Source of the DNA: Candidatus Iainarchaeum sp.
GTDB taxonomy: Archaea; Iainarchaeota; Iainarchaeia; Iainarchaeales; Iainarchaeaceae
Length of the DNA stretch: 41,061 nt
Assembly: GCA_038895675.1 (NCBI GenBank)
Contig: JAWANB010000002.1
Coordinates: 1-41,061 of the forward strand
Direction: 5' to 3'
A program made the translations under genes and the position numbers. Below, piece by piece: positions 1 to 41,061 of the stretch. Within the stretch, counting starts at the first letter, position 1; every line of letters begins with the position of its first letter. The notes beneath the pieces were generated by a model. The model had not been told where the DNA came from, made no database searches, and was given only the letters and a program-made list of their open reading frames with translations.

Positions 1-455
1 ATAGCTAATCTGGCTTTTCCTGTTTTTACATATTCTTCCATTAAGTTTGGTATTGGTGGTATCCAATTTGGATCTCTTTTTTTCATATAACCTACGTATT
101 CTTGTGCCATTCCTGAAGCAGCTGCACAAAAAGGGCAAGAAAAATCAGTAAAAATTACAATTGTTACTGGTGCATCAGATTTACCAATGACAGGCCCTTC
201 GTCAGCAAGACTTTTTAAATATGATTCAGCGTCTTTTATAATATCTTCGTTTCCGGTAGTTGTATTTTTTTCATTTATTTCTTGTGTCGTTTCTATTTTT
301 ATTTTTTCTATGTTTTTTGCTATTGTTGTTAATTTTCCTGTTATGTCATTGCCAAGCATTACTATTGGTGTTGCGATAATTAGCGCTGCTATGATTATTG
401 CTATTGGTGTGTAGTATTTTTCGGTTCTTTCTTCTTTTTTATGTTTTTCTTCCAA
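1..455 (-). CDS. Membrane-anchored DsbA/thioredoxin-fold thiol:disulfide oxidoreductase (3' end lies outside the window)
   Basis: My own minus-strand translation; the gene is absent from the ORF track because it runs off the window edge. It reads ...YYTPIAIIIAALIIATPIV (TM anchor) ... GKSDAPVTIVIFTDFSCPFCAAASGMAQEY, with a CPFC redox motif in the usual DsbA context. A probable TTG start at 455 sits about 8 nt after GGAGG, but the start is uncertain. Confidence 0.6.
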   Translation of the reverse strand, partial: MEEKHKKEERTEKYYTPIAIIIAALIIATPIVMLGNDITGKLTTIAKNIEKIKIETTQEINEKNTTTGNEDIIKDAESYLKSLADEGPVIGKSDAPVTIVIFTDFSCPFCAAASGMAQEYVGYMKKRDPNWIPPIPNLMEEYVKTGKARLA

Positions 456-740
456 ATCTATTCCTCCTTTGAAAATTTTGGAAATTGTTTTATTATTTTG
501 TTTTTAGAAAAATATTTAAAGTAGCTTATTTGTTTAGGTTTATGTTTTTGACAAGTCTTTTAAAGTCTTTTAATTTGTCTTGTCTTTGTAGAATTCCGCT
601 TTTTAGGCATTATTAGTCTTTCAATCCTTTTTTTGCCCTTGGTTTTAGAGTCGTTTTTCAAGTTTTTTTTGTTTGTTAGTATTGTTTTTGTTTTTTTTAA
701 GTCGTTTTTACAGAGTCTTTTGTTTTGCTTTAATTTGTTT

Positions 741-1538
741 TTATTTTTGTTCTTCTGTTTTTATTTTTGCTTTGGTTCCTAATTGTAATTCTGTTTCTCC
801 TCTGTTTTCTCTAACGTATGCATTTTCTATTATGATTTCTTTTCCTTCTCCTATTTTTTCTATTTCTTGTGTTTTTTCGTTCCATGCTATTGCTTTGATT
901 TCTTGGTCTTGTTGTGCTATTATGAATTTTAGTAATTCTCCTTTTCTGTCTTCTTTTTGGAATTCTCTTTTTTCTGTTATTTGTTTTATTTTTGCTTTTA
1001 TTTTCACGTTATTCATTCCTGCTTTCAAGTCGCTTATTTTTGTTTCTGTTTCTTTTTCTTCTCCTATTTTTTCTATTGTGCTGTTGTAGTTCATGTTTAT
1101 TTGTTTTTCTCCTTTGTATTCTGTGATTTTTATGTTTGTGAGTTTTATTATGTCTCCTTCTTTTAGTTTGTTGGTTTCGTATTTTTCTATTTCTTTGTTC
1201 CATAGTGTTAGTCTTGTTTGGCCTGTTTCGTCTTTCAGGTAAATGTTTTGTATTTTTCCTTTGTTTCCTTTTGTTTCAAATTCTTTTGGTTCAAATATTT
1301 TTGTGATAGTGGCTTTTAGGTCTATGTTTTTCATTCCTGTTTTTAGTTCTGTTATTTTTGGTGTTTCGTTTTCTTCCATGATTTTTACTTGTAGTTCTCT
1401 TGCTACTATTATTGCTGCTCCTGTTTCTGTTAGTAGTCCTGAAAACTTGTTTTTTTTTGTGTGAATTAGTTCAAGTATTTCTTCTTTGGTTTTTCCTGTT
1501 TTTGTTGCTATTTTGTTTATTATTTCTTCTGTTTCCAT
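741..1538 (-). CDS. Replication protein A / replication factor A-like ssDNA-binding protein (multiple OB folds)
   Basis: 265 aa. The N-terminal helical module (KEEILELIHTKKNKFSGLLTETGAAIIVARELQV) is typical of archaeal RPA. It is followed by repeated OB-like blocks (IYLKDETGQTRLTLWNKE; IIAQQDQEIKAIAWNEK). The gene is divergent from radA. Confidence 0.7.
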   Translation of the reverse strand: METEEIINKIATKTGKTKEEILELIHTKKNKFSGLLTETGAAIIVARELQVKIMEENETPKITELKTGMKNIDLKATITKIFEPKEFETKGNKGKIQNIYLKDETGQTRLTLWNKEIEKYETNKLKEGDIIKLTNIKITEYKGEKQINMNYNSTIEKIGEEKETETKISDLKAGMNNVKIKAKIKQITEKREFQKEDRKGELLKFIIAQQDQEIKAIAWNEKTQEIEKIGEGKEIIIENAYVRENRGETELQLGTKAKIKTEEQK

Positions 1539-1678
1539 TTTCTCACTTTTTTTTGCACTGGCATTTTGGTTGGTTACTTATTTAAGAATTTGGGCGTGGG
1601 TTTTTTATTAGCATAAGGCATTGAGCGGCCAAAGCCAATTGGCTAGTGCTTAGAAAGCCTTTTGTCGGAGGTTTTTTT

Positions 1679-2638
1679 ATGGCGAAAGATAAAGAAATAA
1701 AAGAAGTTGAGGATTTGCCCGGTGTAGGTCCTCAGGCTGCTGAAAAGCTTATTAATGCTGGTTATAAGACTCTTGAGTCTATTGCTGTTGCTTCTCCTCT
1801 TGAGTTAATGGAAATTGCTGGTTTGGGTGAGGGCACTGCTACTAAGGCTATTAATGCTGCGCGTGATGCTCTTGAAATGGGTTTTGAGTCTGCTGCGGAT
1901 ATTGCTGAGAAGCGTAAGCATGTTGGTAGGCTTACTACTGGTAGTAAGGAAGTTGATAATCTCTTGGGCGGTGGTATTGAGACTCAGAGCATTACTGAGA
2001 TTTATGGTAAATTTGCTAGTGGTAAAACTCAGTGGTGTTTTCAAACTGCTGTTACTGTTCAATTGCCTGTAGAAAAAGGCGGTCTTGATGGTGCTTGTCT
2101 TTACATTGATTCTGAGAATAGTTTTAGGCCTGAGAGAATTCAGGCTATTGCCGAGGCTCAGGGTCTTGATCCTGAAAAGGTTTTGCAGAACATTTTTGTT
2201 GCGAGAGCTTATAATAGTGATCATCAAATTTTGCTTGCTGAAAAGGCAAACGAGTTGATTAAGGAGAAGAACATCAAGTTGATTATTGTTGATTCTTTGA
2301 CTTCTCAGTTCAGGTCTGAGTTTGTTGGTAGAGGCACTCTTGCAGAGAGACAGCAAAAACTCAATAAGCATATGAGGACTTTGCAGAAGCTTGCTGAGAT
2401 GTATAATATTGTTGTTTTAGTGACTAATCAAGTTTTGGAAAGGCCTGATGTTTTGTTTGGCGATCCTACTGCTCCTATAGGTGGTAATATTGTGGGGCAC
2501 GCGAGCAAGACAAGGCTTTATTTGAGGAAAAGTAAGGATGATAAGAGAGTGGCAAAACTTGTTGATAGTCCTCATTTGCCTGATGGTGAGGCGATTTATA
2601 GGGTGACAGAGAGGGGCATTGAGGATGTAGAGGATTAA
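1679..2638 (+). CDS. radA: DNA repair and recombination protein RadA
   Basis: N-terminal HhH ([17 protein letters not shown]), Walker [10 protein letters not shown], Walker B LIIVDS, and a C-terminal [17 protein letters not shown]. The ATG at 1679 is preceded by GGAGGT; the track ORF starts at an upstream GTG (1646). Confidence 0.95.
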
Positions 2639-2747
2639 ATCCTCTTTATTTTCTTTTTTTTAGGTTGTAGTTTTCGTTTTTGAGTTTACTTTGTTTGTTT
2701 TTTTGTACAAATAATCTTTTTATATGCTTGTTTATTCATATTTGAGC

Positions 2748-3543: not shown

Positions 3544-4419
3544 TCAGATTTTTTTTGTTATTTTTATTAATTCTTTTATTGGGTCTTGTTCTGCTTTCCA
3601 GCCAATGCTTTCTATTTTTTGTGTTGAGTAGTTTCTTTCAGCTTGCATTCTTTGTATGTATGCTTTGTTTATGTCTTTTGATATTTTCAGTATTTGGTTT
3701 ATTTCTGCAATTGTCATTCCTAACCATAATGGTATTTTTTTTACTTTTTTCATTCCGAGTTCTTTTCTTATTGTGTTCACTAGTTCTTCTAATGTTATTT
3801 TTTTTGGATGTGCTATTATGAAAGTTTCTCCATAACAATTTTCATTGTTGCAACAAAACTCGAATGCTTTTGCCGTGTCTTTTGCTGTTATCATTTGCCA
3901 AATGTTTTTGCCTTGTCCTACTATTGGGTAATTTTTTTTTATTTTTTCTATTATTTTTTTCCAGTATTCATTTTCTCCTACTATGATTGCTGGTCTCAAT
4001 ATTGTTATGTGAAACAATTCTTGTCTTTCTTGGACTTTTTTTTCTGCTTCGTACTTGCTTTTTTCATACTTTGTTTCTGGTTTTGGTTGTGTTGTTTCAT
4101 CTTTTAGTCCTGGTTGTAATCCGTAGACTCCTGCTGTGCTTGCGTATATGAATTGGTCTATTTTTGCTTCTTCTGCTGCTTCTAAGCAGTTTTCTGTTCC
4201 TTTGACGTTTATTTCCCAAAGGTCGTTGGCATTTTCGTTTAGTTGTGCTGCCAAGTGAATTACTATTTTGCATCCTTTGAATGCTTTTTTTAGGTTTTCT
4301 TTGTCCATTATATTGTTTTTTTCTTTTGTGCATTCTACTATTTCGTGTCCTTTTTCTTGTAAGTTTTTTGTTAGTATTTTTCCTATCATGCCGTTGCTTC
4401 CTGTTATTGCTATTCTCAT
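3544..4419 (-). CDS. NAD-dependent epimerase/dehydratase (SDR family)
   Basis: N-terminal Rossmann motif ITGSNGMIGKIL and catalytic YxxxK (YEKSK). Confidence 0.8.
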   Translation of the reverse strand: MRIAITGSNGMIGKILTKNLQEKGHEIVECTKEKNNIMDKENLKKAFKGCKIVIHLAAQLNENANDLWEINVKGTENCLEAAEEAKIDQFIYASTAGVYGLQPGLKDETTQPKPETKYEKSKYEAEKKVQERQELFHITILRPAIIVGENEYWKKIIEKIKKNYPIVGQGKNIWQMITAKDTAKAFEFCCNNENCYGETFIIAHPKKITLEELVNTIRKELGMKKVKKIPLWLGMTIAEINQILKISKDINKAYIQRMQAERNYSTQKIESIGWKAEQDPIKELIKITKKI

Positions 4420-5480
4420 TTTTTCACCATTTCAAAAACCATGTCTTTGCCAAGCCATTTAAAGTCTTTTAGTCTTGCTTTTATTTCTTTTTTTGTTTTG
4501 AATGCTTTTAGTCCTTTTCGGACTTTTTTTTGTGATATTATAATATACATTTTGTCAAATAGTTTTTCTTCTATTAGTGTGCTTGCTAATTTTTGCCCTG
4601 GTTCTATTAGTGCTGAGCATATTCCTATTTCGTATAATTTTTTTTTCAACCATTTTATGTCTATTTTTCCTTTTTTTTCTTTTGCAATAATTATTTTTGC
4701 TCCTGCTTTGATTAGTCGTAAGATTTTTTTGTGTTTTGCTTTTTTTGTTGTGACTATTATTGTTGTGCCTTTTTGTTTTAAAGTTTGTGCTTTTATTGGT
4801 GTTCTTGCTTTTGTATCTAGTATTATTCTTATCGGGTTTTCTTTTTGGTTTTTTTTGTATGTTAGTTTTGGGTTGTCTTTTATTATTGTGTTTACTCCTA
4901 CTATTATTGCGTCGTGTATTTTTCTTAGTTTTTGTGTGAATTCGTTGGCTTTTTTTCCTGTGATTTTTTTCTTTTTTTTGTCCCCCCATGTTATGTAAAA
5001 GTCTTTTGTCGTGGCTATTTTTAGTGTGAAAAAGCATTCTTTGTCTTTTATGTTTTTTATAAAAACTTCGTTTAGTTCTTCAGCTTCTTTTGTGCAGGGT
5101 CCTAAATTAGTTTTTATGCCGTGTTTTTTTAGTTCTTTTGCTCCTTGTTTTGATTTTTTGTTCGGGTCTTTCATTGCATAGTAGACTTCTTTTATTCCTG
5201 CTTTTATTATTGCTTTTGTGCAGGGTGGTTGTTTTCCATAATGGTTGCATGGCTCTAACGTTACAAACATTGTTGAATTTTTTGCTTTTTTTCCTGCTTT
5301 TTTTATTGCTTCTGCTTCCGCGTGTTCTTTTCCGTATTTTTTGTGCCATCCTCTACTTATTATTTTGTTGTTTTTTACTATTATTGCTCCAACCATTGGG
5401 TTTGGGTTTGTTTTTCCTAAACTTTTTTTTGCTATTTTGAGTGCTATTTTCATGAACTTTTCTTTTATTTTTTTGTCCAT
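4416..5480 (-). CDS. ribD: Riboflavin biosynthesis protein RibD (pyrimidine deaminase plus reductase)
   Basis: Deaminase zinc motifs HAEAEAI and PCNHYGKQPPC, followed by a C-terminal RibD_C-like reductase half. There is a 4-nt overlap with the downstream epimerase gene. Confidence 0.85.
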   Translation of the reverse strand: MDKKIKEKFMKIALKIAKKSLGKTNPNPMVGAIIVKNNKIISRGWHKKYGKEHAEAEAIKKAGKKAKNSTMFVTLEPCNHYGKQPPCTKAIIKAGIKEVYYAMKDPNKKSKQGAKELKKHGIKTNLGPCTKEAEELNEVFIKNIKDKECFFTLKIATTKDFYITWGDKKKKKITGKKANEFTQKLRKIHDAIIVGVNTIIKDNPKLTYKKNQKENPIRIILDTKARTPIKAQTLKQKGTTIIVTTKKAKHKKILRLIKAGAKIIIAKEKKGKIDIKWLKKKLYEIGICSALIEPGQKLASTLIEEKLFDKMYIIISQKKVRKGLKAFKTKKEIKARLKDFKWLGKDMVFEMVKK

Positions 5481-5510: not shown

Positions 5511-6305
5511 TTATATTATTGGCATTGTTAGTGCTATTATTGTTCCTATGAATATGAATGGTCCGAATTTTGGCAGGTCTCTATAAACTAGTATTTTTTT
5601 TATTCCTATTTTTTCTAGTTCTTTTATTTCTTTTGGTTGCATTACTTCTTTTAGTAGGTTTTTTGTTTTGTCCATTGTTTTTTTATCTATGAATTCTTTT
5701 GCTATTATTTCGTCTTCTTCTGCTTCACTTGTTTTTATTTCTTTGAGGAAAAATTCTTTTTTTATTCCTTTTTCTAGTGCTATGTAAATACAGCCTAAAA
5801 TTAGTGGTATGTAAGTAATTTGTGCTATTGTTTTTATCGTGTTGTTAGTTGGTGTTATTAGTGCTATTATAGTATATGCTGTTATTAGTGTTCCTAATAT
5901 AATTGCTTTTTTTATGTTGTCTTTGTTTATTTCTATTTCTATTCTTTTTTGTGCGTATTTTATGGTATAGTATGTTGATACGTATGTTATTGCTGTGATT
6001 GTTGCGAATAGTATTGAGTTTATTATGAAACTATTGTTTTCGCTTGGCATTATCATTGCTATTCCTGTGTATAGGTTTACGTCTCCTCCTCCTATTTTAC
6101 CTGTTTTGTAAAGTAAGTAACCTATTACGTAAATTATTATTGGTAGTAAAAAAGCGTAGTAATTGTTTTCTATTATGTTTAGTATTGCTCCTATTAGAAT
6201 TAGTGGTTTTGTTATTGTGTCGTATATGTATCCTGTTTTATAGTCAGTGTATGCTGCTATTCCTGTTGCTGTTATTAGTGTTATTGTTCTTATTGTTTCT
6301 ATCAA
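5511..6305 (-). CDS. A24-family prepilin/preflagellin (class III signal) peptidase
   Basis: Polytopic membrane protein carrying the two aspartyl motifs (AAYTDYKTGYIYD and GKIGGGDVNLY), plus a C-terminal soluble extension. Confidence 0.7.
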   Translation of the reverse strand: MIETIRTITLITATGIAAYTDYKTGYIYDTITKPLILIGAILNIIENNYYAFLLPIIIYVIGYLLYKTGKIGGGDVNLYTGIAMIMPSENNSFIINSILFATITAITYVSTYYTIKYAQKRIEIEINKDNIKKAIILGTLITAYTIIALITPTNNTIKTIAQITYIPLILGCIYIALEKGIKKEFFLKEIKTSEAEEDEIIAKEFIDKKTMDKTKNLLKEVMQPKEIKELEKIGIKKILVYRDLPKFGPFIFIGTIIALTMPII

Positions 6306-6309: not shown

Positions 6310-7656
6310 TCACCTTAATTTGAATTTTTTCTTTTTTTTCATTGCTCCTAACACTTTTTTTTGTAGTGCTTCTAAGTTGTTTTCTCTTATATTTTCTTGG
6401 CTTGTTGCTTTTGTTAGTTCTTTGTACATTTTTTTCATTTTTTTGAAGTTTGATAGTAGTTCTCTTACACTTTCTTGTGTTTTGCCTGAGCCTTTTGCTA
6501 TTCTCGCTATTCTTGATTTGTTTAGCATTTCTGCGTGTTGTCTTTCGTATGGTGTCATTGAGTCTATTATGTTTCCGTAATCTCTTAGTTTTTTTTCTCC
6601 TATTTCTGCTATTTCTTTTGGTATGCTTCTGCTTAGACCCATTAGTTCCATGATTTTTGTTAGTGGTCCTATTTTTTTTGTGGCTTTTAGTTGTGTGTAA
6701 AAAGTTTGTAGTGTAAAGTCATTTTGTGTCATGTTTATTTCTTCTATTTCTTCTTGTATTTCTGTTGCTTTTTCTATTAGGGTTTGTAGGTCTCCGTAGC
6801 CCATTATTCTGCTTAGGTATCTTGTTGAGTCAAATTCTTGAATGTCGTCTATTTTTTCTCCTGTGCCTATAAAGTAGACTTTTGCTCCTGTTGCTTTGCA
6901 TGCTGCGAGTGCTCCTCCTCCTTTTGCGCTTCCGTCTGTTCGTGTTAGTATTACTCCGTTTATTCCTATTGCTTCGTGAAATGCTTGTGCTTGTTTTTTT
7001 GCTAATTGTCCTATGTCTGCTCCTATCACTAACCACTTGTGTTCTGCTTGGAATTCGTTGTTTATTTCTTTTATTTCTTTTATTAGTTCTTCGTCTAAGG
7101 CGCTTCTTCCAGCGGAGTCGCATATTATGAGGTCGCAGTCTTTTAGTTTTTGTAGTCCTTCTTTAATTATTTTTTTTGGGTCTTTTTCTTTTTCGTTTCC
7201 GTAAAATTCTGCTTTTGCGTTTTTTGCTATTGTTCTAAGTTGTTCTGTTGCTGCTGGCCTGAAAACGTCTGCTGCTATTAATCCTGTTTTTTTGCCTCTT
7301 TTTTGGTACCATTTTGCGAGTTTTCCTGCTGTTGTTGTTTTGCCGTTTCCAAAAAGACCTACTAACAATATTTTTTTTGGGTCTTCTGGCGGGCTCGTTT
7401 TTTCTCCTAATATTTCAACTAATTTTTCGTAAGTGGTTTTTATTACGTGTTCTTTCCTGTTAATGTTTTCCGGCAGGTCTTTAAAGGCTTCTTGTTCTAT
7501 TTCTTTGCTTAGTTTTATTACTAATGCAATTTCAACGTCGGCTGAGATTAGTGCTCTTTGTATTTGTTTTATTGTTTCTTTTACTGTTTCTTTGTCTATT
7601 TTGCTTGAGTTTCTTAGTTTTTCTAGTGCGTTTCTTAACGATTCTCCTAAGTCCAT
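6310..7656 (-). CDS. srp54: Signal recognition particle protein SRP54
   Basis: GTPase motifs GLFGNGKTTTAGKLA, DVFRPAA, DSAGR and TRTDG, plus a Met-rich M domain. Confidence 0.95.
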   Translation of the reverse strand: MDLGESLRNALEKLRNSSKIDKETVKETIKQIQRALISADVEIALVIKLSKEIEQEAFKDLPENINRKEHVIKTTYEKLVEILGEKTSPPEDPKKILLVGLFGNGKTTTAGKLAKWYQKRGKKTGLIAADVFRPAATEQLRTIAKNAKAEFYGNEKEKDPKKIIKEGLQKLKDCDLIICDSAGRSALDEELIKEIKEINNEFQAEHKWLVIGADIGQLAKKQAQAFHEAIGINGVILTRTDGSAKGGGALAACKATGAKVYFIGTGEKIDDIQEFDSTRYLSRIMGYGDLQTLIEKATEIQEEIEEINMTQNDFTLQTFYTQLKATKKIGPLTKIMELMGLSRSIPKEIAEIGEKKLRDYGNIIDSMTPYERQHAEMLNKSRIARIAKGSGKTQESVRELLSNFKKMKKMYKELTKATSQENIRENNLEALQKKVLGAMKKKKKFKLR

Positions 7657-7911
7657 ACTTTTTTTTTGTTGTTAAGTAATTAAAATTGGTTGTGTTGTTT
7701 TTGTTTTTTTAGAAATTGTTTTTTTTGTTATTTTTTTTAGTTGTTTTATAAGTTTTTTTTTGTGTTGCTTTCCACTAATTTTTTTTGCTTTTTTTTTAAG
7801 TGCCGTAGTTTTTTTTATTAGTTGTTTTCAGTTTTGCCTATTTTACTCTAATCAGAATTGTTTTGTTTGTTTGAATTAGTTTTTTCGGGGAATTTGTTTC
7901 CCCGATTGTTT

Positions 7912-8100
7912 TTAGGCTTTTATTGTTTCTGTTATTTCTTCTTTTTTCTTTGATCTGAAATTAGCGTATGGTCTGTACTTTGTTTTTGTCCATGCTTCTG
8001 GTTGCTTTTTTCTCATTCTGAATTCTGCTTTCAAGAGTTTTTGTCTGAATTCTTCAGTAGCTTCTATTCCAAGTAGTTCGCTTAGGTCAACCATGTTCAT
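7912..8100 (-). CDS. Small basic hypothetical protein, translationally coupled to the TRAM gene
   Basis: 62 aa ORF whose ATG overlaps the TRAM gene stop (ATGA, 8097-8100). I recognise no family motif. Confidence 0.45.
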   Translation of the reverse strand: MNMVDLSELLGIEATEEFRQKLLKAEFRMRKKQPEAWTKTKYRPYANFRSKKKEEITETIKA

Positions 8101-10370: not shown

Positions 10371-12113
10371 ATGAAAGTCGCTTTAATTAGCTTAATATTT
10401 TTAGTTCTATTTTTTCAATTCACTATAATTTATAGTTTCGAACCCATAGATCCAAAAATAATAAATTATATGGATGCTGAATTGACTCAGAGTTTATTTG
10501 GTTCTTTTTATGGTACTATAAATAAAGGCGATAAGTTAGAAGTAAGTGTTTTGAGGCCTGTTAAGTCTGAAAGCTTGAGTTGGGAAATAATTGAAGAATA
10601 TTTGGAGATTCAAGGTAAAAGATTCTATCCAAAGGTTACTAATGTTGGGGATTTAGAATACTCTACTTTTGAGCTTTCTGATTTGTTTGAGTATGTTGAC
10701 GAGCCTAAATTCACGATTGTTAGAAAAATGCATGTTCAGAGTAAGTCAAGAGTCGGCATTGTTGGTGACTATAATTTGGTAAAGGAATTATCTGATTACA
10801 AAGATTATGTTCAAGCTTCAGAAAACATGGAGTCGAATGACTTTGAACTAAAGGCTTTTGCTTCTCAATTTAAGTCTATTTCTTTTTTAGAGACAATTTC
10901 TTTGACAAGCGAGTGGGTGCATAATAACATAGTTTACGATTTAGATAACTATTATAAAATAACTGCTACTGCCAAGGAGACTTTCAAGTCTAAGCGTGGT
11001 GTTTGTGATGAGTTTGCGAATTTAACTGGGGCTCTTTTGAGGGCAAACGGCGTTCCTGTAAGGTATGTCAGTGGAATAAGTTTTGACGGAGAAACATTTG
11101 GTAATCATGGTTGGATTGAAGCTTATTCTCCAAGCACTGGTTGGTTGCCTGTTGATTCTACTTTTGCAGAAGTAGGTTATGTTGATGCTGCGCATATCCC
11201 TTTTTCAAAGACAAAAGATATTAACGAGTCTGTTGATATTATAACAAAGACAAAAAGTATGAAGCCTATAGAAGTTGATGTGTTTTTTGGTGAGCCAAAA
11301 GTAGAAATTAAAAAAATTGGTTTATTCCAAAAAAATACTAGTACTGCTTTGTTAGTGCCTGAAAAAGCTTTGCCGAATAAACCAATTGTAATAAAAGTTC
11401 AGCTTCAAAATTTGACTGAAAATAGTTTGATTGTGCCTTTGAATGTTTTTGCTCATAAAGACTTTAAATCTTCAGAAAAAACAAAATTGTTTGTGTTGAA
11501 TGGAAAGGAGAGTGCTTTAAAAGTTTGGAATTTGATTACTCCAAATAAAGAAGTAGTTGATAAAGAATACACTTATGAAATACTTGCTATTTCTTTTGAC
11601 AGTAATGACAAGAAGCAGATAACGATATCTAACATTGGCGAAGCTGGAGTTGGCGAAGCTAAGGTTACTGAATTAGTACCTGAAGTAATAGATAGTAAAA
11701 TAATATTGAGTTTGAATTTTGAGAATTTTAGCGGCAGCGTTCAGAAGTTTAAGGTGAGTGCAATTCATGATAATCAAGTTGTTGTTGAGAAAGAGTTTGA
11801 AGTAAAAGATATTTTGGCAAAAGAGAAATTGGAAGTTCCTTTGGTTGTAGGTGTTTTAATAGTAAAGGTTTTTGGTGTTAAGGATCAGGAGTTTCATTTG
11901 GAGTTCGTGGATAAAAAGCACGAAATGCAAAAAGAAGTTAAAAGGAGCGAGTCAGAACCTATTAATTCTCAAGTTTCTTTGGCAGAAAACAAGTCTAACG
12001 ATCCTGTGTTGGATTTTTTCCAATCTTTTAATTGGGTTGGTTTTGCACAAATAGCATTATTAGTGTTAATAGTAATATTTTCTTTGGGTCTTGTTCTCAC
12101 AAAGAGAATTTAA
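10371..12113 (+). CDS. Surface-anchored transglutaminase-like (cysteine protease fold) protein
   Basis: N-terminal signal/TM segment. Transglutaminase core with a Cys-His-Asp arrangement (KRGVCDEFANLTGALLRANGVPVRYVSG ... NHGWIEAY ... WLPVDSTF). Beta-rich C-terminal half and a C-terminal TM anchor (IALLVLIVIFSLGLVL). Confidence 0.8.
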   Translation: MKVALISLIFLVLFFQFTIIYSFEPIDPKIINYMDAELTQSLFGSFYGTINKGDKLEVSVLRPVKSESLSWEIIEEYLEIQGKRFYPKVTNVGDLEYSTFELSDLFEYVDEPKFTIVRKMHVQSKSRVGIVGDYNLVKELSDYKDYVQASENMESNDFELKAFASQFKSISFLETISLTSEWVHNNIVYDLDNYYKITATAKETFKSKRGVCDEFANLTGALLRANGVPVRYVSGISFDGETFGNHGWIEAYSPSTGWLPVDSTFAEVGYVDAAHIPFSKTKDINESVDIITKTKSMKPIEVDVFFGEPKVEIKKIGLFQKNTSTALLVPEKALPNKPIVIKVQLQNLTENSLIVPLNVFAHKDFKSSEKTKLFVLNGKESALKVWNLITPNKEVVDKEYTYEILAISFDSNDKKQITISNIGEAGVGEAKVTELVPEVIDSKIILSLNFENFSGSVQKFKVSAIHDNQVVVEKEFEVKDILAKEKLEVPLVVGVLIVKVFGVKDQEFHLEFVDKKHEMQKEVKRSESEPINSQVSLAENKSNDPVLDFFQSFNWVGFAQIALLVLIVIFSLGLVLTKRI

Positions 12114-17747: not shown

Positions 17748-17815
17748 GCGCAATAGGATGCATAACAATAACAGAAGTCGTCTAGACGATTATGAAAATT
17801 TCTACTATTGTATAT
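17731..17815 (+). CRISPR. Degenerate type V-A mini-array: 3' half-repeat, 32-nt spacer, terminal repeat R2
   Basis: 17731-17747 is TTTCTACTATTGCAGAT, 16/17 against the repeat 3' end. The spacer at 17748-17779 is GCGCAATAGGATGCATAACAATAACAGAAGTC. R2 at 17780-17815 is GTCTAGACGATTATGAAAATTTCTACTATTGTATAT, 35/36 against R1. Both degenerate copies carry their mismatch inside the handle stem. Confidence 0.7.
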
Positions 17816-18011: not shown

Positions 18012-18050
18012 GTTGCTCTTTTTGTAACCTAAATACTATGTTTATTGAAA

Positions 18051-21397: not shown

Positions 21398-21429
21398 AAT
21401 GAATTCTCCTTTTTTATTTTTTTACAGAA

Positions 21430-25132: not shown

Positions 25133-26224
25133 ATGGATATTTCAAGTGTTATTGATAGGGCAGTTTCTGAAATAAATGATTTTGAGGCGAGGCAAAAACT
25201 TGTTTTTGGAAAACTTTTTTCTTTGCGTTCTCTTGATTTTTCTTCTGTTGGTTTTCCAGAGAATAAACTTGTTTTTCCTGTTTCAAAGTGGGTTGCTAAT
25301 GGTTGTGTTGTTGGTGTTGATTCTGGTTTTGTTTCAAGGCGTTTTTCTTCTATTGACGTTGTTTTAGTTAGGGCTATTGCTAGTGTTTTTGGTTATAGTA
25401 ATGGTAAGCTTTCTTTTTCTTATTATTACCCTGGTTTTTTTACTTTTCCTGTTCCTTTTTTTAGTGGTTCTTATTTAGAGGATTTTGAGTTTGATCAGAG
25501 TAAGAGTCTTGTTAGGTTGCGTGAAGAGGTCCGTGTTGCTAAAGAAGTTATTTTGAATTATTCTCCTAAGTATTTGTTTATTGATGGTAGCATTGTTCCT
25601 CAGTATCGTGATAAGCCTCGTAAGGGTTCTGTTTTAGAGGGTGGTTATTCTTCTATAATTAATGAGTTTGAGTCTTTGTATTCTTTGGCTTTTTCTAATG
25701 GCACTACTTTGATTGCTACTGTTGAGGATAGTAGAGGTAAAAGGTTTTGTGAATTTTTGGGGTCTGATATTATTCCTTATTTTTTGAGTGATTTTAATGA
25801 TGATTTGAGTAATGTTTTTGATACTCAATTGCTTGATGTTTTGTTGAAGGTTGGTGAGCGAAGTTGTGCTTTTACTTATGCCAAGGATATTTCTCAACAT
25901 CCTATTTTGCAGGATTTTTCTTCTAGTTGGGCTGATAAAATTTATTGTTTGTATTTAAAGCCTTCTGTGTTGGATAGGCCTTTGAGAGTCGAGTTTTTAG
26001 TTGGTGTTGATAATAATGTTAGTAGTGTTGCAAACGAAGTTGCTTCTGTTGTTTTTGCTTTGAGTTCTTTGCATAGGGAGTATGCTTATCCTTCTGTTTT
26101 GATTGATGCTGATTTGCATGCTCGTCTTTCTCCTCAAGAAATAGAGTTGGTTTTTAATAAGATTTTTGATAAACTTGGAGGTTCTTCTCGTTTGAGGTTG
26201 CGTCGGGAGAATAGGCCTTTTTGA
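25133..26224 (+). CDS. nurA: NurA 5'-3' nuclease
   Basis: NurA-like acidic motifs (VVGVDSGFV and LFIDGSIVPQ), appropriate size, and a position immediately upstream of herA. Confidence 0.7.
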   Translation: MDISSVIDRAVSEINDFEARQKLVFGKLFSLRSLDFSSVGFPENKLVFPVSKWVANGCVVGVDSGFVSRRFSSIDVVLVRAIASVFGYSNGKLSFSYYYPGFFTFPVPFFSGSYLEDFEFDQSKSLVRLREEVRVAKEVILNYSPKYLFIDGSIVPQYRDKPRKGSVLEGGYSSIINEFESLYSLAFSNGTTLIATVEDSRGKRFCEFLGSDIIPYFLSDFNDDLSNVFDTQLLDVLLKVGERSCAFTYAKDISQHPILQDFSSSWADKIYCLYLKPSVLDRPLRVEFLVGVDNNVSSVANEVASVVFALSSLHREYAYPSVLIDADLHARLSPQEIELVFNKIFDKLGGSSRLRLRRENRPF

Positions 26225-28165: not shown

Positions 28166-28756
28166 ATGCCTTTTTTTGAGTCTTTAGAATCTTTGCTAAT
28201 TAATTTTGGTTATGTTGCTCTTTTTTTGATAGTTTTTGCTGAATCTGGTTTGTTTTTTGGTTTTTTTTTGCCTGGCGATTCTTTGCTTTTTACTGCTGGT
28301 TTGCTTGCGTCAAAGGGTTTTTTTGACTTGAACTTGATTTTGTTTGGCACTATTGTTTCTGCTATTTTAGGTGATCAAGTTGGTTATTGGATGGGTAAAA
28401 AGTTTGGTAGGGCTTTTTTTGTTAGACCTAATGATTTTTTTAGGGATCCTAAGCATGTTGTTCGTGCTGAAGAGTTTTATAGGAAGCATGGTAAGAAAGC
28501 TATTTTTTTGGCGCGTTTTTTTCCTGTTGTAAGGACTTTTGCTCCTATTGCTGCTGGTATAGGAAACATGTCTTATGTTGATTTTGTCAAGTATAATGTT
28601 TTAGGTGGTTTTGTTTGGTGTTGTGTTTTTATTTTGGGTGGTTATTTTGTTGGTTCTATTTTGCCTGATTCTGAGCAGTACTTTACTTTGATAATATTTG
28701 CTATTATTTTTGTTTCTTTGATTCCTGCTGTTAAAGAATTTTTGCTTAGAAAATGA
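28166..28756 (+). CDS. DedA-family membrane protein
   Basis: FAESGLFFGFFLPGDSLLFTAG, GYWMGKKFG and HGKKAIFLARFFPVVRTFAPIAAG. Confidence 0.85.
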   Translation: MPFFESLESLLINFGYVALFLIVFAESGLFFGFFLPGDSLLFTAGLLASKGFFDLNLILFGTIVSAILGDQVGYWMGKKFGRAFFVRPNDFFRDPKHVVRAEEFYRKHGKKAIFLARFFPVVRTFAPIAAGIGNMSYVDFVKYNVLGGFVWCCVFILGGYFVGSILPDSEQYFTLIIFAIIFVSLIPAVKEFLLRK

Positions 28757-28816: not shown

Positions 28817-30130
28817 ATGTCTCCCGATACATTTGTTTTAAGTAGCTTAAAGTATGTTGAAAGTTCTAAGGGTGTTTTTGTTTATTTTTCAAGCTCTTCT
28901 ATTAATGATTTTGTCAAGTTTTTTTCTTTCAGACCTAAAATTTTGTTGCCTTTGTCTATTCCTTTTGATTTTTTAGTGTCTTTTTTTGGGAGTGAGAATG
29001 TCATGAAAAATCCTTATTCTTATTCTGTTTTTTTTGACGATTTGGCTTCTTTAAAAAGTGCTGTTAGGGTTTTGTCTTTGTCTTTTGGTATTAATATTAA
29101 TATAATTGAGCCTGAAAGGCAGTTTTTGATTTTAAATGGTTGGTCTTATCATGATGCTTTTGTTTTGAATGGCGATTCTTTTGAAAAAGTTTCTTCTTCT
29201 GCTTTCTTTTCTGTTGAAAGTATTTTATCTAATATTTGTAGGGTTCCTTCAAACGTTTGTGCTAATTTTTTTGTTGTTAAAAAAATTTTTGTTGAAAACT
29301 TGTTTTTTGGTTCTGATTTGTTTTTTGATGGTTCTTTTTTTGTTTCAAAAATTGATTTTGGTTTTAATAGCAACTTTGTTGAAATAGATTATTCTGCTTT
29401 TTTGGTTTTTCTTGCTTCTTTGCAAAATTTTTCTTTAGGTTCTTTTAATTGTTCTTGTTGTAAGCCAAATTCTTTGGAAGCTGACAATTTGTTAAAGTCT
29501 TCTCTTGTCAAGGCGCGTTTTTTGTCTGACGGGTTTTCTTTTTTTTCTGTTTCTTCTATTTGGGCTAAAAAGTTTTTGCAAAAGCCCTCTAAAAATTCTT
29601 TAGTTGGGCCTTTTTTCAGGAATAAGGATTATTTCCTTTTGGTTGGTGATGCGTTTTGTCTTTCTAAGAATGGTTTTGTGGAAATTGTTTCTAGTTCTTC
29701 TGTTTTTTGGAGTTGTAGGTCAAAAGTTTCTTTTTTTTCTTTTGAGGCTAAGAGACTTTTAGATTTGTTGTCTTGTTTTTCCTCTTCTATTCATGTTTCT
29801 TCTTCAAAGTCTAATGTTGTTGAGTGTTTGCAAGCAGAATCTAACGTGTTTGAGTATTCTTCTATTGTTAGTAATTTTTTGTCTTTAATGTCAAATTTTG
29901 TTTTTAGTGTTGGCAATGTTTGTTCTGTTGAGGCTATTCATTTTGAGTGCTTGTCTTATGAAATAGCTTGTGAATTGGCGTCTGTTTTTCCTAACAGGGT
30001 TTTTAGGTTTTTTCCTTTAAGTGCAAAGTTTGTTGTTAAGTCTTCTGATAATTTGTCTTTTGTTTTAAGTCGCTTGTCTTGTTCTTATAAAATTCCACGT
30101 GGTCTTTTAAAGGTTGATTTTAGGCGTTAG
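28817..30130 (+). CDS. Hypothetical protein; possible degenerate family-B DNA polymerase N-terminal/3'-5' exonuclease-like paralogue
   Basis: 437 aa, extremely F/S-rich. By eye it is collinear with the archaeal PolB N-terminus: YVESSKGVFVYF...FSFRPKILLPL against Y..E.GKPVIRLF...FRPYIYAL. IIEPERQFLILNGW aligns with DIPFAKRYLIDKG, AFFSVES with the ExoI motif AFDIET, and FGSDLFFD with the ExoII motif NGDSFDF. No palm motifs (DxxSLYPS, DTD) are visible. Confidence 0.4.
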   Translation: MSPDTFVLSSLKYVESSKGVFVYFSSSSINDFVKFFSFRPKILLPLSIPFDFLVSFFGSENVMKNPYSYSVFFDDLASLKSAVRVLSLSFGININIIEPERQFLILNGWSYHDAFVLNGDSFEKVSSSAFFSVESILSNICRVPSNVCANFFVVKKIFVENLFFGSDLFFDGSFFVSKIDFGFNSNFVEIDYSAFLVFLASLQNFSLGSFNCSCCKPNSLEADNLLKSSLVKARFLSDGFSFFSVSSIWAKKFLQKPSKNSLVGPFFRNKDYFLLVGDAFCLSKNGFVEIVSSSSVFWSCRSKVSFFSFEAKRLLDLLSCFSSSIHVSSSKSNVVECLQAESNVFEYSSIVSNFLSLMSNFVFSVGNVCSVEAIHFECLSYEIACELASVFPNRVFRFFPLSAKFVVKSSDNLSFVLSRLSCSYKIPRGLLKVDFRR

Positions 30131-31188: not shown

Positions 31189-31242
31189 TTAGATTTTTTT
31201 TAGTTGATATGTTTATTTTTTTGTCGTTGTTCTTTATTTCTT

Positions 31243-33288
31243 ATGATTAGGCGTTTGGTGTTAAAAAACTGGAAGACGCATTATGATACTACTCTTGAAT
31301 TTGTTAAGGGCACTAATGTTATTGTTGGTAAGATAGGTAGTGGTAAAAGCTCTGTTTTGGATGCTGTTTCTTATGCTTTGTATGGTACTTTCCCTGCTCT
31401 TAATTCTCGTAAAGTAAGTCTTGACGAGGTCATAATGGTTAGACCTTCTATACAAAATAGTGCTTTGGTTGAGTTAGAGTTCGTGTATGCTGGCAAAAAT
31501 TATTTGGTTAGAAGAATTTTGAGGCGCAATGGTGTTAACGAGGCCGAGCTTAGGGAAAATGGTAATCTTATTTCAGGACCTAAGACTAGTGATGTTAATA
31601 GAAAGATTGAAGAGTTGCTTGAAGTGAGTTATGATCTTTTCAGTAGGGCTATTTATTCTGAGCAAAATCAGTTGGATGCTTTTTTGAAAATGACGCCAAG
31701 CCAAAGAAAAGAAAAGCTTGATGAGTTACTTGGTTTGGATAAGTATGAATTGGTAAGGTCTAATGCTGTTACTTTGTCAAGCAGGTTTAGAAAACTTTCT
31801 GATGATAAGAGAAAATTTGCGGAAGAGCAAAAGAAAAAAATCGATTTTAATAAGTTTGAAGAGTATAAGAAAAAGGTTGTTGAGAAACAAAGTGAAATTT
31901 TGTCTCTTGAGAAGTCTTTGGTTGATTTGGATAATATTGTTAGAGAGAAAAAAGAGAATCTTGATTTTTTGGTTGATTTGGAGAAGAAGCATGTTGAGCT
32001 TGAGAAGAGGCTTACTTCTTTGTCTTCTAAAATAAGTTCTTTGCGTGATGATTGTGTTTTTATTGAGAAAAAAATTTCTGGCTTGAGTTTTGATGAGTTG
32101 TCAAAGAAAAAAGCAGAATTAGGAAAAAAAATCGAGTTTTTGGTTGCTGAAAGGTCTGCTATTAAGAAAGAGCAAGATACTTTGAGGTCTTTGTTGGTTT
32201 CTTTAAAGGAAGACAAGGCTTCTTTAAAGGCTGATTTGGTTAGGCTTGAAAAGTCTATTTCAAGTATTGATTCTATTAGTGGTTCTTGTCCTGTTTGTAA
32301 GAGGCCTATGTTGGAGCATGAGAAGTCTTTTTTGTTGAAAGAGTTTTTAGAAGAGAAAAAAAGGGTCGAATCTTTAATTTCTGAAAAAGATTCTTTGTTA
32401 AAGTCTCACGAGGCTTCTATTGATAATATTGTTTCTAAAGATAAGTCTTTAGAAAATGATTTAGAGGTTTTTAAGAAGCAATTTTTTGAAATTGATTCTT
32501 TGTTAAGTTCTGCTTCTGAGTTGGAGAAGAAAAAAATTTCACTTGAAAGTTATGAGAAAGAATTTTCTTCTTTAAGTTCAGAATTAAATTCTTTGGGTTT
32601 TGATTCTGAAAGATTGCGTTTGGCGAGGGCTGAGTTTTCTAATTATTCTTCTGATTTAGAAAAAACTAAGGTCATGTTGAAGAGTTCTAAGGAGCTTCTT
32701 GACGAAATTAATAGGTCTATTAGTATTTTTGAGAATTCTTTGAAGAATGTTTCGTTGCTTGAGGATGAAGCTAATTCTTTATCTTATTATTCTGAACTTA
32801 TTTCTATTTTTGTTAATGCTCTTGCTTCTGCTCAGGTTGAATTAAGAGAGCTTATGATTGATAATATTAATGTTGCCATGTCTGAGATTTGGCCTAAGAT
32901 TTATCCTTATGGTGATATTCAAGGTGTAAAGCTTGTGCTGGTTGACGGTAACTATGAAATTTTTGCTAAGGGTCTCAATGATGAGCTTGTTAGAGTTGAA
33001 GGTATTCTTTCTGGTGGTGAAAGGAGTTGTGTTGCAATAACTTTGCGTATTGCTCTTTCTTTGGTTTTGACGAGTAATTTGGGTTGGATAATGCTTGATG
33101 AGCCTACTCATAACCTTGATTCTTCTGTTGTTTCAAGATTTGCTGTTACTATTGGTGAACGTTTGCCGGAACTAATTGGTCAGGTTTTTATAATAACTCA
33201 CGATAAGTCTTTAGAGGTGGCTGGCACTGGCAAGTTGTATCATTTTGAGAGGGAAAAGGAGTCTCAAGGTTATACTAAAGTGTTTTAA
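31243..33288 (+). CDS. rad50: Rad50-like SMC-family ATPase with a zinc hook (short coiled coil)
   Basis: N-terminal LVLKNWKTH...GTNVIVGKIGSGKSSVLDAVSYALYG, a central CPVCKRP hook, then the C-terminal signature LSGGERSCVAITLRIALS and Walker B IMLDEPTHNLD. Confidence 0.8.
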   Translation: MIRRLVLKNWKTHYDTTLEFVKGTNVIVGKIGSGKSSVLDAVSYALYGTFPALNSRKVSLDEVIMVRPSIQNSALVELEFVYAGKNYLVRRILRRNGVNEAELRENGNLISGPKTSDVNRKIEELLEVSYDLFSRAIYSEQNQLDAFLKMTPSQRKEKLDELLGLDKYELVRSNAVTLSSRFRKLSDDKRKFAEEQKKKIDFNKFEEYKKKVVEKQSEILSLEKSLVDLDNIVREKKENLDFLVDLEKKHVELEKRLTSLSSKISSLRDDCVFIEKKISGLSFDELSKKKAELGKKIEFLVAERSAIKKEQDTLRSLLVSLKEDKASLKADLVRLEKSISSIDSISGSCPVCKRPMLEHEKSFLLKEFLEEKKRVESLISEKDSLLKSHEASIDNIVSKDKSLENDLEVFKKQFFEIDSLLSSASELEKKKISLESYEKEFSSLSSELNSLGFDSERLRLARAEFSNYSSDLEKTKVMLKSSKELLDEINRSISIFENSLKNVSLLEDEANSLSYYSELISIFVNALASAQVELRELMIDNINVAMSEIWPKIYPYGDIQGVKLVLVDGNYEIFAKGLNDELVRVEGILSGGERSCVAITLRIALSLVLTSNLGWIMLDEPTHNLDSSVVSRFAVTIGERLPELIGQVFIITHDKSLEVAGTGKLYHFEREKESQGYTKVF

Positions 33289-39651: not shown

Positions 39652-39963
39652 TCACCATAGTTTTGCACATTTAACTACTTTTTCTTTGTAGTTGTCATTT
39701 GTTGAGTCGTATTCTAACATTGAATTGCATTTTGCTGTGTTGCTTTCTACTATGTCTTTAGACAAATTGTCATTTGTTGTTTGTCCTGTATAAAAGTCAG
39801 TTATTGAGTTGCTTAGTGTGTTCATGTCCATTAATAAACTCGGCGTATAATTGTTTGTTGTTTGTCTTTCTATTGTTGATATTCCTGCTAAAAATAGTAT
39901 TATTATGGTTGTTGCTGCCAAAGCGTCTGCTGTGAATATTATTCCTTTTTGTTTTATCTCCAT
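39652..39963 (-). CDS. Pilin-like protein with class III signal peptide
   Basis: MEIKQKG|IIFTADALAATTIIILFLAG. Confidence 0.55.
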   Translation of the reverse strand: MEIKQKGIIFTADALAATTIIILFLAGISTIERQTTNNYTPSLLMDMNTLSNSITDFYTGQTTNDNLSKDIVESNTAKCNSMLEYDSTNDNYKEKVVKCAKLW

Positions 39964-40460
39964 ATATACACCTTCAAGGTTTTCTTTTCTAGTGGGCAGT
40001 CAAAGCCAAAATAATTAGCAATACATTTTTCATAGTCTTTTTTTGTTAGTTCTTCATTAGTTGAGACTATTGCGATTTCTATTGTGCTTATGTCTTTTAC
40101 TTTTTCGTCTGGTTTTTGGTCGCAATCTGTGATGTTCAATAAAGAGTCATTTATTTCAAAGTAGCATTTGAATTGTTTTGGTATTAACAATTCTTCTTTT
40201 GAATAACTAAACAGCGGACTAATATTTACGCAATTGTTTATTTTGTATCCTTGTTCTTGAAATTCTGTTTGTATTTGGCATTCTGTTTTTTTTAGTAGCA
40301 TTAATGCTGCGTTTGTCGCTATTGTTGTTGCTTCTGCGCTGAACCTTGTTTCTTTGTTTTGTATTGTTATTAATTCGTAATTACCTAATATTATTCCTAT
40401 TCCTAATACTATTATTCCTGCTGCTAATAGCACGTCAATTGAAAACATTTGTCCTTTCAT
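39954..40460 (-). CDS. Pilin-like protein with class III signal peptide
   Basis: The start at 40460 (MKGQ|MFSIDVLLAAGIIVLGIGIIL) overlaps the upstream stop as ATGA. The track ORF extends to 40544. Confidence 0.55.
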   Translation of the reverse strand: MKGQMFSIDVLLAAGIIVLGIGIILGNYELITIQNKETRFSAEATTIATNAALMLLKKTECQIQTEFQEQGYKINNCVNISPLFSYSKEELLIPKQFKCYFEINDSLLNITDCDQKPDEKVKDISTIEIAIVSTNEELTKKDYEKCIANYFGFDCPLEKKTLKVYIWR

Positions 40461-40921
40461 ATTGGTCCTTTCTCCTTTATTTTTACTAATTTTCCACATT
40501 GTATTTCTGCTGTTGTTGGGTTGTTTGCATAACCATTTTTCCAATATGTTGCTCCTGTTTCGTTTTCAAAGTCTATGTAAAGATCTGTAAAGTTTATTCC
40601 TGAGTATCCTTGTTGGATTTTGTCTATTATTACGTTCATGTCTTTTGTCTGATTATCTATAATTATTTTGCATTCTTTTATCGTGCTTTGGTTGTTATTT
40701 GCTAATGTCGTGTTAAATTTTAGGTCTATGTTTACGTCGTATGCTTTTACTGCTAAGATTGCTGAGTAAAATGTTATTAGCATTTGTTTTGCTGAATTGT
40801 TTTTTGCTATTTCTTCTGTGTTTTTTTCTAAGTTGCTTGTTGTTATTGCTATTGCGCTTATGAATATTGTTGCTACTATTATTGCCAATGCTAAGTCAAG
40901 GCTTATTTGTGCTTTTTGCAT
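40457..40921 (-). CDS. Pilin-like protein with class III signal peptide
   Basis: MQKAQ|ISLDLALAIIVATIFISAIAI. It is the first gene of the cluster. Confidence 0.55.
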   Translation of the reverse strand: MQKAQISLDLALAIIVATIFISAIAITTSNLEKNTEEIAKNNSAKQMLITFYSAILAVKAYDVNIDLKFNTTLANNNQSTIKECKIIIDNQTKDMNVIIDKIQQGYSGINFTDLYIDFENETGATYWKNGYANNPTTAEIQCGKLVKIKEKGPI

Positions 40922-40942
40922 AATTCATAATTGGTTTTTCAA

Positions 40943-40950
40943 TTTAAATA
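40943..40950 (-). promoter_or_regulatory. TATA-box-like element upstream of the pilin-like operon
   Basis: AATTTAAATAATT at 40941-40953 lies about 22-30 nt upstream of the ATG at 40921. That spacing fits a leaderless or near-leaderless archaeal transcript. Confidence 0.35.
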
Positions 40951-41061
40951 ATTGTGTTATGTGTTTTTTTGGTGTTTTGTTTTTAGGTGTTTTCCTAATA
41001 AAAACCAAGTCTTTAAAAAAAGATTTGAGTAGTTTCTTCTTATGAGAAATTTTGTTTTGTT

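Follow-up and report, generated by a model that had tools for sequence, protein, structure and literature searches.

The stretch considered here, called the window throughout, is a DNA of 41,061 nucleotides comprising positions 1 to 41,061 of contig C2 in the metagenome-assembled genome (MAG) GCA_038895675.1 of Candidatus Iainarchaeum (G000; 839 kb in 43 contigs). It carries 45 open reading frames (ORFs) in balanced orientation, 22 on the + strand and 23 on the - strand, with the genes for NurA, HerA and Rad50 among the former and those for SRP54, FtsY and a DnaG-like Toprim protein among the latter (Table 1). We show that the base composition of this DNA reflects a bias that is mutational, strand-specific, limited to one chromosomal domain with a sharp and conserved boundary, heritable across three species and still acting. 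The window is a 41-kb piece of that domain, which covers about 0.3-0.45 Mb of the chromosome and in which one strand is about 85% G+T (78% T) wherever selection allows. This is a new, extreme and domain-limited form of strand compositional asymmetry in an archaeon, and no account of such a skew in Iainarchaeota or Diapherotrites was found in the literature.

The + strand of the window contains 19,289 T, 8,485 A, 7,802 G and 5,485 C, so that overall the AT skew is -0.39, the GC skew +0.17 and the G+C content 32.4%. In 2-kb sliding windows the AT skew ranges from -0.04 to -0.63 and is positive in none, so that the statement of the initial annotation that the polarity does not flip anywhere in the window is borne out. 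Fourfold-degenerate sites were counted in the longest non-overlapping ORFs, a set checked against Pfam and against genes called independently in sister assemblies. At these sites the + genes have T1845, A205, G177 and C130 (AT skew -0.80), and the - genes, read on their coding strand, have A1285, T181, C165 and G105, which corresponds to -0.75 on the + strand. T exceeds A on the + strand at the fourfold sites of 44 of the 45 ORFs, the sole exception being 16787-17356, and in the pooled intergenic DNA (T3392, A1345, G1148, C719) the AT skew is -0.43 and the GC skew +0.23. Because the sign at neutral sites is the same for both gene orientations, the effect follows the DNA strand and not the gene. 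The fourfold skew is neither close to zero nor does it change sign with gene orientation, and the annotation was therefore right in describing the + strand as T-rich in coding and noncoding DNA regardless of the strand on which the genes lie. Its three 60-nt hand counts, at 7681-7740 (Table 1), 29401-29460 (T37 A7 G9 C7) and 15361-15420 (T37 A5 G10 C8), were identical on recount. Its description of the bias as T over A needs to be widened. The excess of T is real, and the complete fourfold composition of the + strand (T.776, G.079, A.087, C.057; G+T = 85.6%) opposes G+T to A+C, comprising C>T, A>G and purine>pyrimidine components. It was also fair to call the skew stronger than the classical bacterial ones, since the raw AT skew of 39% compares with a typical bacterial GC skew of about 2.5% in SkewDB (PMC8941118).

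The proteins encoded on the two strands differ accordingly, as had been proposed from the reading frames when two amino-acid dialects were described. Phe, Ser, Val, Leu and Gly together make up 45.2% of the residues encoded by + genes and 22.2% of those encoded by - genes, and Lys, Glu, Asn, Ile and Thr make up 26.7% and 50.8%, respectively (Mann-Whitney p = 8e-8 for each comparison). In the + genes between 25133 and 33288 the coding-strand fourfold AT skew is -0.85 to -0.89, T makes up about 85-90% of A+T at these sites, and Phe, Ser, Val and Leu are abundant in the proteins. In the - genes between 3544 and 7656 it is +0.80 to +0.91, with about 90% A among A+T and proteins rich in Lys, Ile, Thr and Glu, and in the - genes between 18253 and 21397 it reaches +0.86 to +1.00.

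Table 1. Features of the window (positions on contig C2) and of the surroundings of the domain boundary S (positions on the contigs and loci named)
Feature	Position	Strand	Remark	Basis
Epimerase gene	3544-4419	- (A-rich strand)		Pfam
RibD gene	4416-5480	- (A-rich strand)		Pfam
Prepilin peptidase gene	5511-6305	- (A-rich strand)		Pfam
SRP54 gene	6310-7656	- (A-rich strand)		Pfam
Noncoding spacer with T excess	7657-8096	unstranded	One 60-nt sample, T40 A10 G10 C0	
Transglutaminase-like gene, intermediate skew	10371-12113	+	Fourfold AT skew -0.46	Pfam
Low-skew island, two ORFs (one MarR-like)	16146-17356	-	Fourfold AT skew +0.15 and -0.08	Gene calls
FtsY gene	18253-19407	- (A-rich strand)		Pfam
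134-aa ORF	19620-20024	- (A-rich strand)		
DnaG-like Toprim protein gene	20177-21397	- (A-rich strand)		Pfam
NurA gene	25133-26224	+ (T-rich strand)		Pfam
HerA gene	26368-27906	+ (T-rich strand)		Pfam
VTT-domain protein gene	28166-28756	+ (T-rich strand)		Pfam
437-aa protein gene of no assigned family	28817-30130	+ (T-rich strand)		
Rad50 gene	31204-33288	+ (T-rich strand)		Pfam
XerA-like tyrosine recombinase gene	L050:7988-8866 (= G002 C1:147988-148866); L154:3035-3898		About 1 kb from S; Phage_integrase and SAM-like N-terminal domain	
88% A+T spacer	G000 C16:1145-1916; L154:249-1019; L050:10913-11616 (= G002 C1:150913-151616)			
Mevalonate-operon patch (HMG-CoA reductase, mevalonate kinase, decarboxylase, IPP isomerase)	G002 C1:124-142 kb; G000 C37, C23:8.9-14.1 kb		Both species	

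Beyond the window, the contigs of G000 (completeness 91.7%, contamination 0.23%) span absolute fourfold AT skews (|AT4|) from about 0.8 to about 0, with + and - genes in agreement inside each contig. Expressed in 10-kb bins, |AT4| is 0.6 or more in 36% of the genome, 0.4-0.6 in 14%, 0.2-0.4 in 11% and below 0.2 in 37%, the other 2% of bins being too poor in sites to be classed. Within a gap-free 66-kb stretch of contig C1 (30.2-96.3 kb) the skew climbs from about 0.15 to about 0.7, and an all-against-all BLAST comparison of the genome found ordinary paralogues only, with no duplication of housekeeping orthologues. The single V-shaped switch of cumulative skew over the genome, which the initial annotation had suggested looking for, is not what the chromosome displays; instead, the skew is confined to about half of it, begins at a sharp boundary and fades out at the other end. 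Thus, two replichores of opposite polarity were not found, although the genomes are not closed and a second flip could hide at a contig break, and neither was a single polarity of G against C over the entire chromosome, given that about half is unskewed and the disparity is mainly of T against A, with a fourfold GC skew of only +0.1 to +0.3.

The sharp boundary, which we call S, was located in G002, an independently assembled MAG of another species of the same genus that was analysed over all of its 979 kb. On its contig C1 the fourfold skew is about 0 through a PRC-barrel gene (149287-149616) and -0.81 in the next gene (149704-150306), a jump (at about 149.7 kb) that takes place within less than 100 nt, and from there the skew stays at about -0.8 to the end of the contig. 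The same step lies between the orthologous PRC-barrel and 200-aa genes in GCA_038889715.1 (locus L154), a better assembly of the G000 population, and contig C16 of G000 itself starts inside the boundary spacer. The counterpart of the window in a better assembly of this population is JAWAGW010000001.1:28,950-70,010, which puts the window about 32-73 kb from S. The placement was made by exact-protein look-ups on a 163-kb contig of GCA_038889715.1, where SRP54 occupies 35.3-36.6 kb and SerRS 4.7-6.0 kb. The T-rich strand, which is the + strand of the window, points 5'>3' away from S. One polarity extends from S over at least 281 kb, along the end of C1, C4 (reversed) and C2 of G002 as bridged by contigs C27 and C33 of G000. 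With a contig order that is partly known, the profile has an abrupt start at S, a plateau of at least 160-280 kb and a gradual fade, the last of these visible in C1 of G000 and in C2 and C3 of G002.

The surroundings of S are conserved in both species. On the unskewed side there is about 7 kb of flat DNA with the XerA-like integrase, an HAD hydrolase and an NAD synthase, and past this flat stretch a patch of 15-20 kb over the mevalonate operon has the opposite polarity (+0.3 to +0.6), with flat DNA beyond. We had read the genes at S in G002 (integrase, flanking tRNA-Gly, no orthologues in G000) as a mobile island of recent insertion, and this reading was withdrawn because GCA_038889715.1 has the same genes, which are conserved unskewed DNA absent from the G000 MAG. 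Within the skewed domain, about 1.2 kb from S, lies a spacer of about 700 nt that is 88% A+T, contains tRNA-Met and is located upstream of a conserved 136-aa gene with no Pfam match. It holds GTAATTAC palindromes at an exact spacing of 41 nt, three in G002 (150921, 150962, 151003) and two in contig C16 of G000 (1213, 1254); there are 9-16 copies of this palindrome per genome, and the spacer does not resemble an origin recognition box (ORB). Judged from its sequence, the array could be a candidate operator or initiator-binding array. No dif-like element was identified at S, where the boundary spacer contains only a promoter-like conserved block, and no relaxase or conjugation genes were seen there in G002 or at L154.

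The skew was also compared among relatives. In G002 the neutral-site skew is likewise independent of gene orientation. Its contig C4 (120 kb) holds a uniform +0.7, C2 (152 kb) goes from -0.7 to -0.6 before dropping to 0 at the contig end, C3 (147 kb) declines from -0.7 to -0.3, and about 480 kb are flat; |AT4| is below 0.2 in about 46% of this genome. In a third species, G001, there are contigs at -0.70, +0.5 and 0, and the same pattern was present in further assemblies of the G000 population, of which at least six exist, wherever the skew was computed. The same-genus genomes G003 and G004, with a G+C content of about 50%, stay within |0.26| on sampled contigs, larger values there coming from few sites; the same-family genome G008 has |skew| of at most about 0.3-0.35; in the closed genome G038 (1.24 Mb) of the same order the value does not exceed about |0.15| at nearly all of the 20 positions sampled; and the SRP54 loci of other DPANN archaea reach |0.16| at most. 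Because these other relatives have no strong skew, we conclude that the skew is a derived, heritable trait of one sub-clade. The G+C content of that sub-clade has been lowered to 32-37%.

Orthologues that have changed strand demonstrate that the pressure is still at work. Comparison of G000 with G002 gave 578 reciprocal best hits. Both members are skewed in 188 pairs and unskewed in 132, and only 16 pairs are discordant, which indicates that domain membership is conserved. Within the skewed domain, 76 of the 188 pairs (40%) have one member on the T-rich and the other on the A-rich strand. For them the silent-site skew is fully inverted (-0.70 versus +0.68), and the content of Phe, Ser, Val, Leu and Cys differs by 13-15 percentage points and that of Lys, Ile, Thr, Glu, Gln and Asn by 15-18, compared with gaps in amino-acid content of no more than 3 points in same-strand pairs. 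Composition thus tracks the strand on which a gene currently lies and not its ancestry, and the strand pressure is still acting and drives protein composition. The direction of switching is uneven, with 51 genes on the T-rich strand in G000 and on the A-rich strand in G002 and 25 the reverse. It seems that strand switching is barely counter-selected despite the large protein change that it forces. Amino-acid identity between orthologues is 65% and 60% for same-strand pairs of the domain, compared with 60% outside it. As orthologues in the domain are no less alike than those outside it, the overall rate of mutation does not seem elevated, and mutations appear to be redistributed between the strands.

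The kind of mutation was assessed at twofold sites, where only transitions are silent, pooled over the strongly skewed contigs of G000, with the unskewed contigs as baseline. On the T-rich strand C/(C+T) is 0.05-0.14 and G/(A+G) is 0.61-0.72, and at twofold sites of the unskewed contigs G+C has a share of 0.38 where the codon ends in a pyrimidine (NNY) and of 0.23 where it ends in a purine (NNR). Relative to this baseline, C>T and A>G are both favored on the T-rich strand. At fourfold sites of the same strand pyrimidines outnumber purines by about 4-5:1, an excess which indicates that purine>pyrimidine changes are favored as well. If unskewed DNA is taken as the mean of the two strand states, C>T comes out with an asymmetry of about 4.8x and A>G with one of about 3.9x. 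From these equilibrium compositions we infer that C>T, A>G and purine>pyrimidine changes share one common factor, each running about 4-5 fold ahead of the partner strand. The damage to which single-stranded DNA is prone, and which these changes resemble, consists of deamination of cytosine and adenine and of loss or oxidation of purines. One factor shared by deamination and purine loss or oxidation would be the outcome expected of prolonged single-strandedness, as far as equilibrium composition can tell. The unskewed contigs of G000 have a tiny coding-strand effect (fourfold AT skew about -0.04).

The inventory of replication and repair genes, which had been recommended along with the initial annotation, was made and did not discriminate between skewed and unskewed genomes. 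The uracil-DNA glycosylase superfamily (PF03167) was found in none of 12 genomes of the order (G000-G004, G005, G008, G010, G012, G015, G023, G038), and the same search matched 13 of 14 controls. In these 12 genomes, HhH-GPD glycosylases and PolB occur in skewed and unskewed genomes alike, and PolD is present in 11, its N-terminal domain not being found only in G001, which is 85% complete. Both Cdc6 paralogues are present in most of 41 genomes, again in skewed and unskewed ones alike, and in the genomes with the domain neither Orc1/Cdc6 gene sits at a polarity flip. A two-origin model with a flip at Cdc6-2 was ruled out, as C4 of G002 is uniformly at +0.7 across the gene and the polarity is kept over the junction of C4 and C2. 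Just upstream of orc1/cdc6-1 there is a conserved dyad (G000 C5:25567-25761; G002 C1:59843-60098) with the consensus GGAA-N-GTT-N-AGTTCCAyAACT followed by a T-run, and in G002 PolD is a few kb away. It is a single conserved element, situated in unskewed DNA, which on its sequence may be an ORB-like element of a canonical origin.

The initial annotation had attributed the skew to a mutational asymmetry linked to replication or repair, and not to selection on codons. The first part of this attribution stands, in that the bias is mutational, follows the strand and reshapes proteins; the tie to replication, the direction of synthesis and the exposure of single strands as the cause are what we infer. 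As a reasonably probable explanation we favor a mutation pressure that is heritable, specific to one strand and linked to DNA synthesis running in one direction from S, by which one strand would be exposed. According to this proposal, DNA synthesis would regularly begin at or near S and would travel one way through the skewed domain, and the + strand would stay single-stranded for longer than its partner, either as lagging-strand template or as displaced strand. In bacteria, and in those archaea whose origins have been mapped, the leading strand is the one rich in G and T, and by this analogy synthesis would run away from S.

Several observations weigh against synthesis that starts at S. A plain origin should give two arms, and S is flat on one side save for the separate patch of opposite polarity 7-25 kb away. 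The initiator genes lie elsewhere, with Cdc6-1, which has PolD beside it, 87 kb from S in unskewed DNA and Cdc6-2 124 kb inside the domain without a flip of polarity. The genes on either side of S are conserved throughout the order, unskewed genomes included, and no gene difference in the repair and polymerase inventory of the 12 genomes explains the lineage-specific onset of the skew. Of the orthologue-supported genes, the T-rich strand carries 57% in G000 and 44% in G002, which gives no consistent sign of a leading strand; gene-strand bias was rejected as a proxy for fork direction, being inconsistent between the species, with raw ORF counts that are inflated on the T-rich strand. The 97 biallelic single-nucleotide polymorphisms in seven strain-level assemblies are too few, and their polarization too unreliable, to confirm the spectrum directly. 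Finally, about half of the chromosome is unskewed, which demands an extra assumption such as random fork direction or different forks. Fork direction in the flat half may be effectively random, which fits the equal divergence and the self-consistent 4-5x solution; alternatively, the flat half may be copied by different, nonskewing forks, or the process in the domain may be other than ordinary replication.

A more specific form of the proposal, in which one-way synthesis of a mitochondrion-like type, uncoupled or strand-displacing, starts from the fixed non-Orc1 site S next to the A+T spacer with its palindromes and copies about half of the chromosome of this clade, the rest being copied by ordinary archaeal forks free of strand bias, is put forward tentatively and is in our judgment rather doubtful. 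If true, two mechanistically different replication regimes would coexist on one archaeal chromosome and would be readable from its sequence.

It is unlikely, in our estimation, that S is instead a terminus or polar fork barrier, such that forks enter at the fading end and run toward S, the T-rich strand is the leading-strand template and the bias comes from an asymmetry of polymerase or repair and not from exposure of the lagging-strand template. In bacteria the Xer/dif site marks the terminus, where the skew flips, and the XerA-like recombinase gene close to S in both species would agree with such an arrangement, as would the position of S in the interval that separates the Cdc6 genes, in which converging forks would come together, and the location of Cdc6-1 and PolD in the unskewed half. 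However, an active origin at Cdc6-2 would need a flip of polarity at that gene and there is none, the general association of the G/T-rich strand with leading-strand synthesis puts synthesis away from S, and no dif-like element was identified.

Quite unlikely also is a polar but nonreplicative process that exposes single strands from S, such as repeated break-induced or recombination-dependent synthesis from a site-specific nick or break, or Hfr-like one-way transfer of a single strand with decaying reach, with ordinary unskewing forks elsewhere. It would account without fine-tuning for the sharp start, the plateau, the fade and a remainder no different from the normal state of the relatives; the spectrum is of the type of single-strand damage; and a tyrosine recombinase gene and the A+T spacer with its spaced palindromes are near S. 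Nevertheless, the identity of orthologues, which is not lower in the domain, speaks against a strongly mutagenic extra process, no relaxase or conjugation genes were seen at S, transfer could dominate the input of mutations only if it took place about as often as replication, and the small patch of opposite polarity is not predicted.

The remaining two explanations are almost certainly wrong. That the skew is made by selection on codon usage, transcription-associated mutation or gene-orientation bias would follow the general view of a 2026 survey, which ascribes archaeal skews to gene orientation and translational selection (PMC12999951), and would be in line with the tiny coding-strand effect in unskewed contigs, but it is refuted by the equal sign of the + strand in + genes, - genes and intergenic DNA and by the inverted composition of strand-switched orthologues, and the orientation of genes in the window is balanced. 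That it is an artefact of a mixed bin, a mis-scaffolded assembly or damage-type sequencing error might be suspected from the division of contigs into skewed and unskewed classes and from the fact that G000 is a scaffolded MAG with runs of N, but this too is refuted, with contamination low, core genes not duplicated, skewed and unskewed DNA joined in gap-free sequence (the C1 stretch of G000, C1 of G002, L154), independent assemblies of three species in agreement, and proteins intact and conserved.

Bacteria have a replication-associated asymmetry between leading and lagging strands with strand-specific codon and amino-acid usage (Lobry-type; Borrelia, Chlamydia, Lawsonia; PMC2089121, PMC2671203, PMC3269012). 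The Iainarchaeum domain shares with these the orientation-independent excess of G+T that is strongest at silent sites, the difference of codons and amino acids by strand and the abrupt boundary of polarity. In contrast, its fourfold AT skew of about 0.8 and raw skew of 0.39 exceed the few per cent that are typical of bacteria (PMC8941118), it belongs to an archaeon, it occupies half a chromosome with one sharp and one fading end and not mirror-image replichores, and there is no initiator gene at its boundary. The asymmetry of vertebrate mitochondrial heavy and light strands, for which a strand-displacement model exists (PMC3269012, PMC4182315, PMC10730292), is comparable in magnitude, involves C>T and A>G on the exposed strand (deduced here from equilibrium composition) and likewise affects protein composition (PMC2779903); it is graded along the molecule, which the plateau and fade of the domain may resemble. 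However, the domain described here is 0.3-0.45 Mb of a cellular chromosome and not a 16-kb organelle genome, and it has a strong additional purine>pyrimidine drive, such that T (78%) dominates in place of a balanced G+T.

The nearest precedent for a huge and clade-restricted disparity is that of Microgenomates of the candidate phyla radiation (Ch65, Collierbacteria, Beckwithbacteria), in which a whole-chromosome G/C disparity was described and unidirectional replication was tentatively proposed (Kadnikov et al. 2020, PMC7143001). Those organisms are also an ultra-small, uncultured, symbiont-type lineage with a very large disparity, no V-shaped cumulative skew and restriction to a clade; theirs, however, is a disparity of G against C (C 29.8%, G 15.0%) with none between A and T, where that of Iainarchaeum is mainly T against A, and it extends over the whole chromosome of a bacterium, where that of Iainarchaeum covers about half of an archaeal one and has a sharp boundary. 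SkewDB further lists about 250 bacterial chromosomes with an unexplained 'asymmetric skew', one replichore having at least 3x the skew of the other, which sometimes has none (PMC8941118). These are similarly part skewed and part essentially flat, but their skews are weak bacterial GC skews for which no analysis of neutral sites, spectrum or other species has been reported. In archaea, skews have been described as weak and as arising from gene orientation and translation (PMC12999951, 2026; bioRxiv 10.1101/2023.11.15.567178), on the basis of the same kind of measurement, namely skews by codon position and in noncoding DNA, and the Iainarchaeum clade is a clear exception.

These findings contradict the generalization that archaea essentially lack strand-specific mutational skew (2026 survey, PMC12999951), the bias being at the level of animal mitochondria. 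The mapped boundary, the polarity and the fading end provide a sequence-level handle on how DNA is handled in an uncultivated DPANN archaeon. Moreover, the domain constitutes a natural experiment on mutation pressure that rewrites proteins, in which 40% of the domain orthologues have switched strand and shifted by 13-18 points with function kept. On the practical side, codon and amino-acid dialects and the heterogeneity between the halves of the genome can mislead k-mer binning, gene calling, detection of horizontal gene transfer and phylogenies.

A few features of the window depart from its general composition. In the low-skew island, ORF 16146-16859 is weakly skewed and the overlapping ORF 16787-17356 is the exception to the T>A rule mentioned above. 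The island is most simply explained as recently arrived DNA that has not yet reached the local composition. A doubtful ORF nearby, 17792-18163, is also essentially without strand skew. Similarly, the transglutaminase-like gene may be a younger resident of the skewed domain. In L175 (GCA_038884555.1, contig JAWABR010000013.1), from a strain of the same population, the neighborhood of SRP54 differs from that in the window, with HisRS, a peptidase M24 and, at the contig end, a 641-aa product with family-B DNA polymerase domains on that side of the gene; this is a strain-level rearrangement within the skewed domain.

Stop codons are scarce on the T-rich strand, which leads to long spurious ORFs opposite real genes, and gene callers may over-predict there; an example is given by the four overlapping + ORFs (114-161 aa) at 20142-21778, inside the DnaG-like gene. 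A dispersed low-complexity repeat consisting of A-runs broken by GGCTTGC or ACTTGAC-like words is found in G002 and not in G000, at L050:7380-7940 (G002 C1:147.4-147.9 kb) and at many intergenic sites. It often sits at contig ends, which indicates that assemblies break there. In unskewed contigs its A-rich form is almost always on one strand per contig, and in C1 the strand switches at S.

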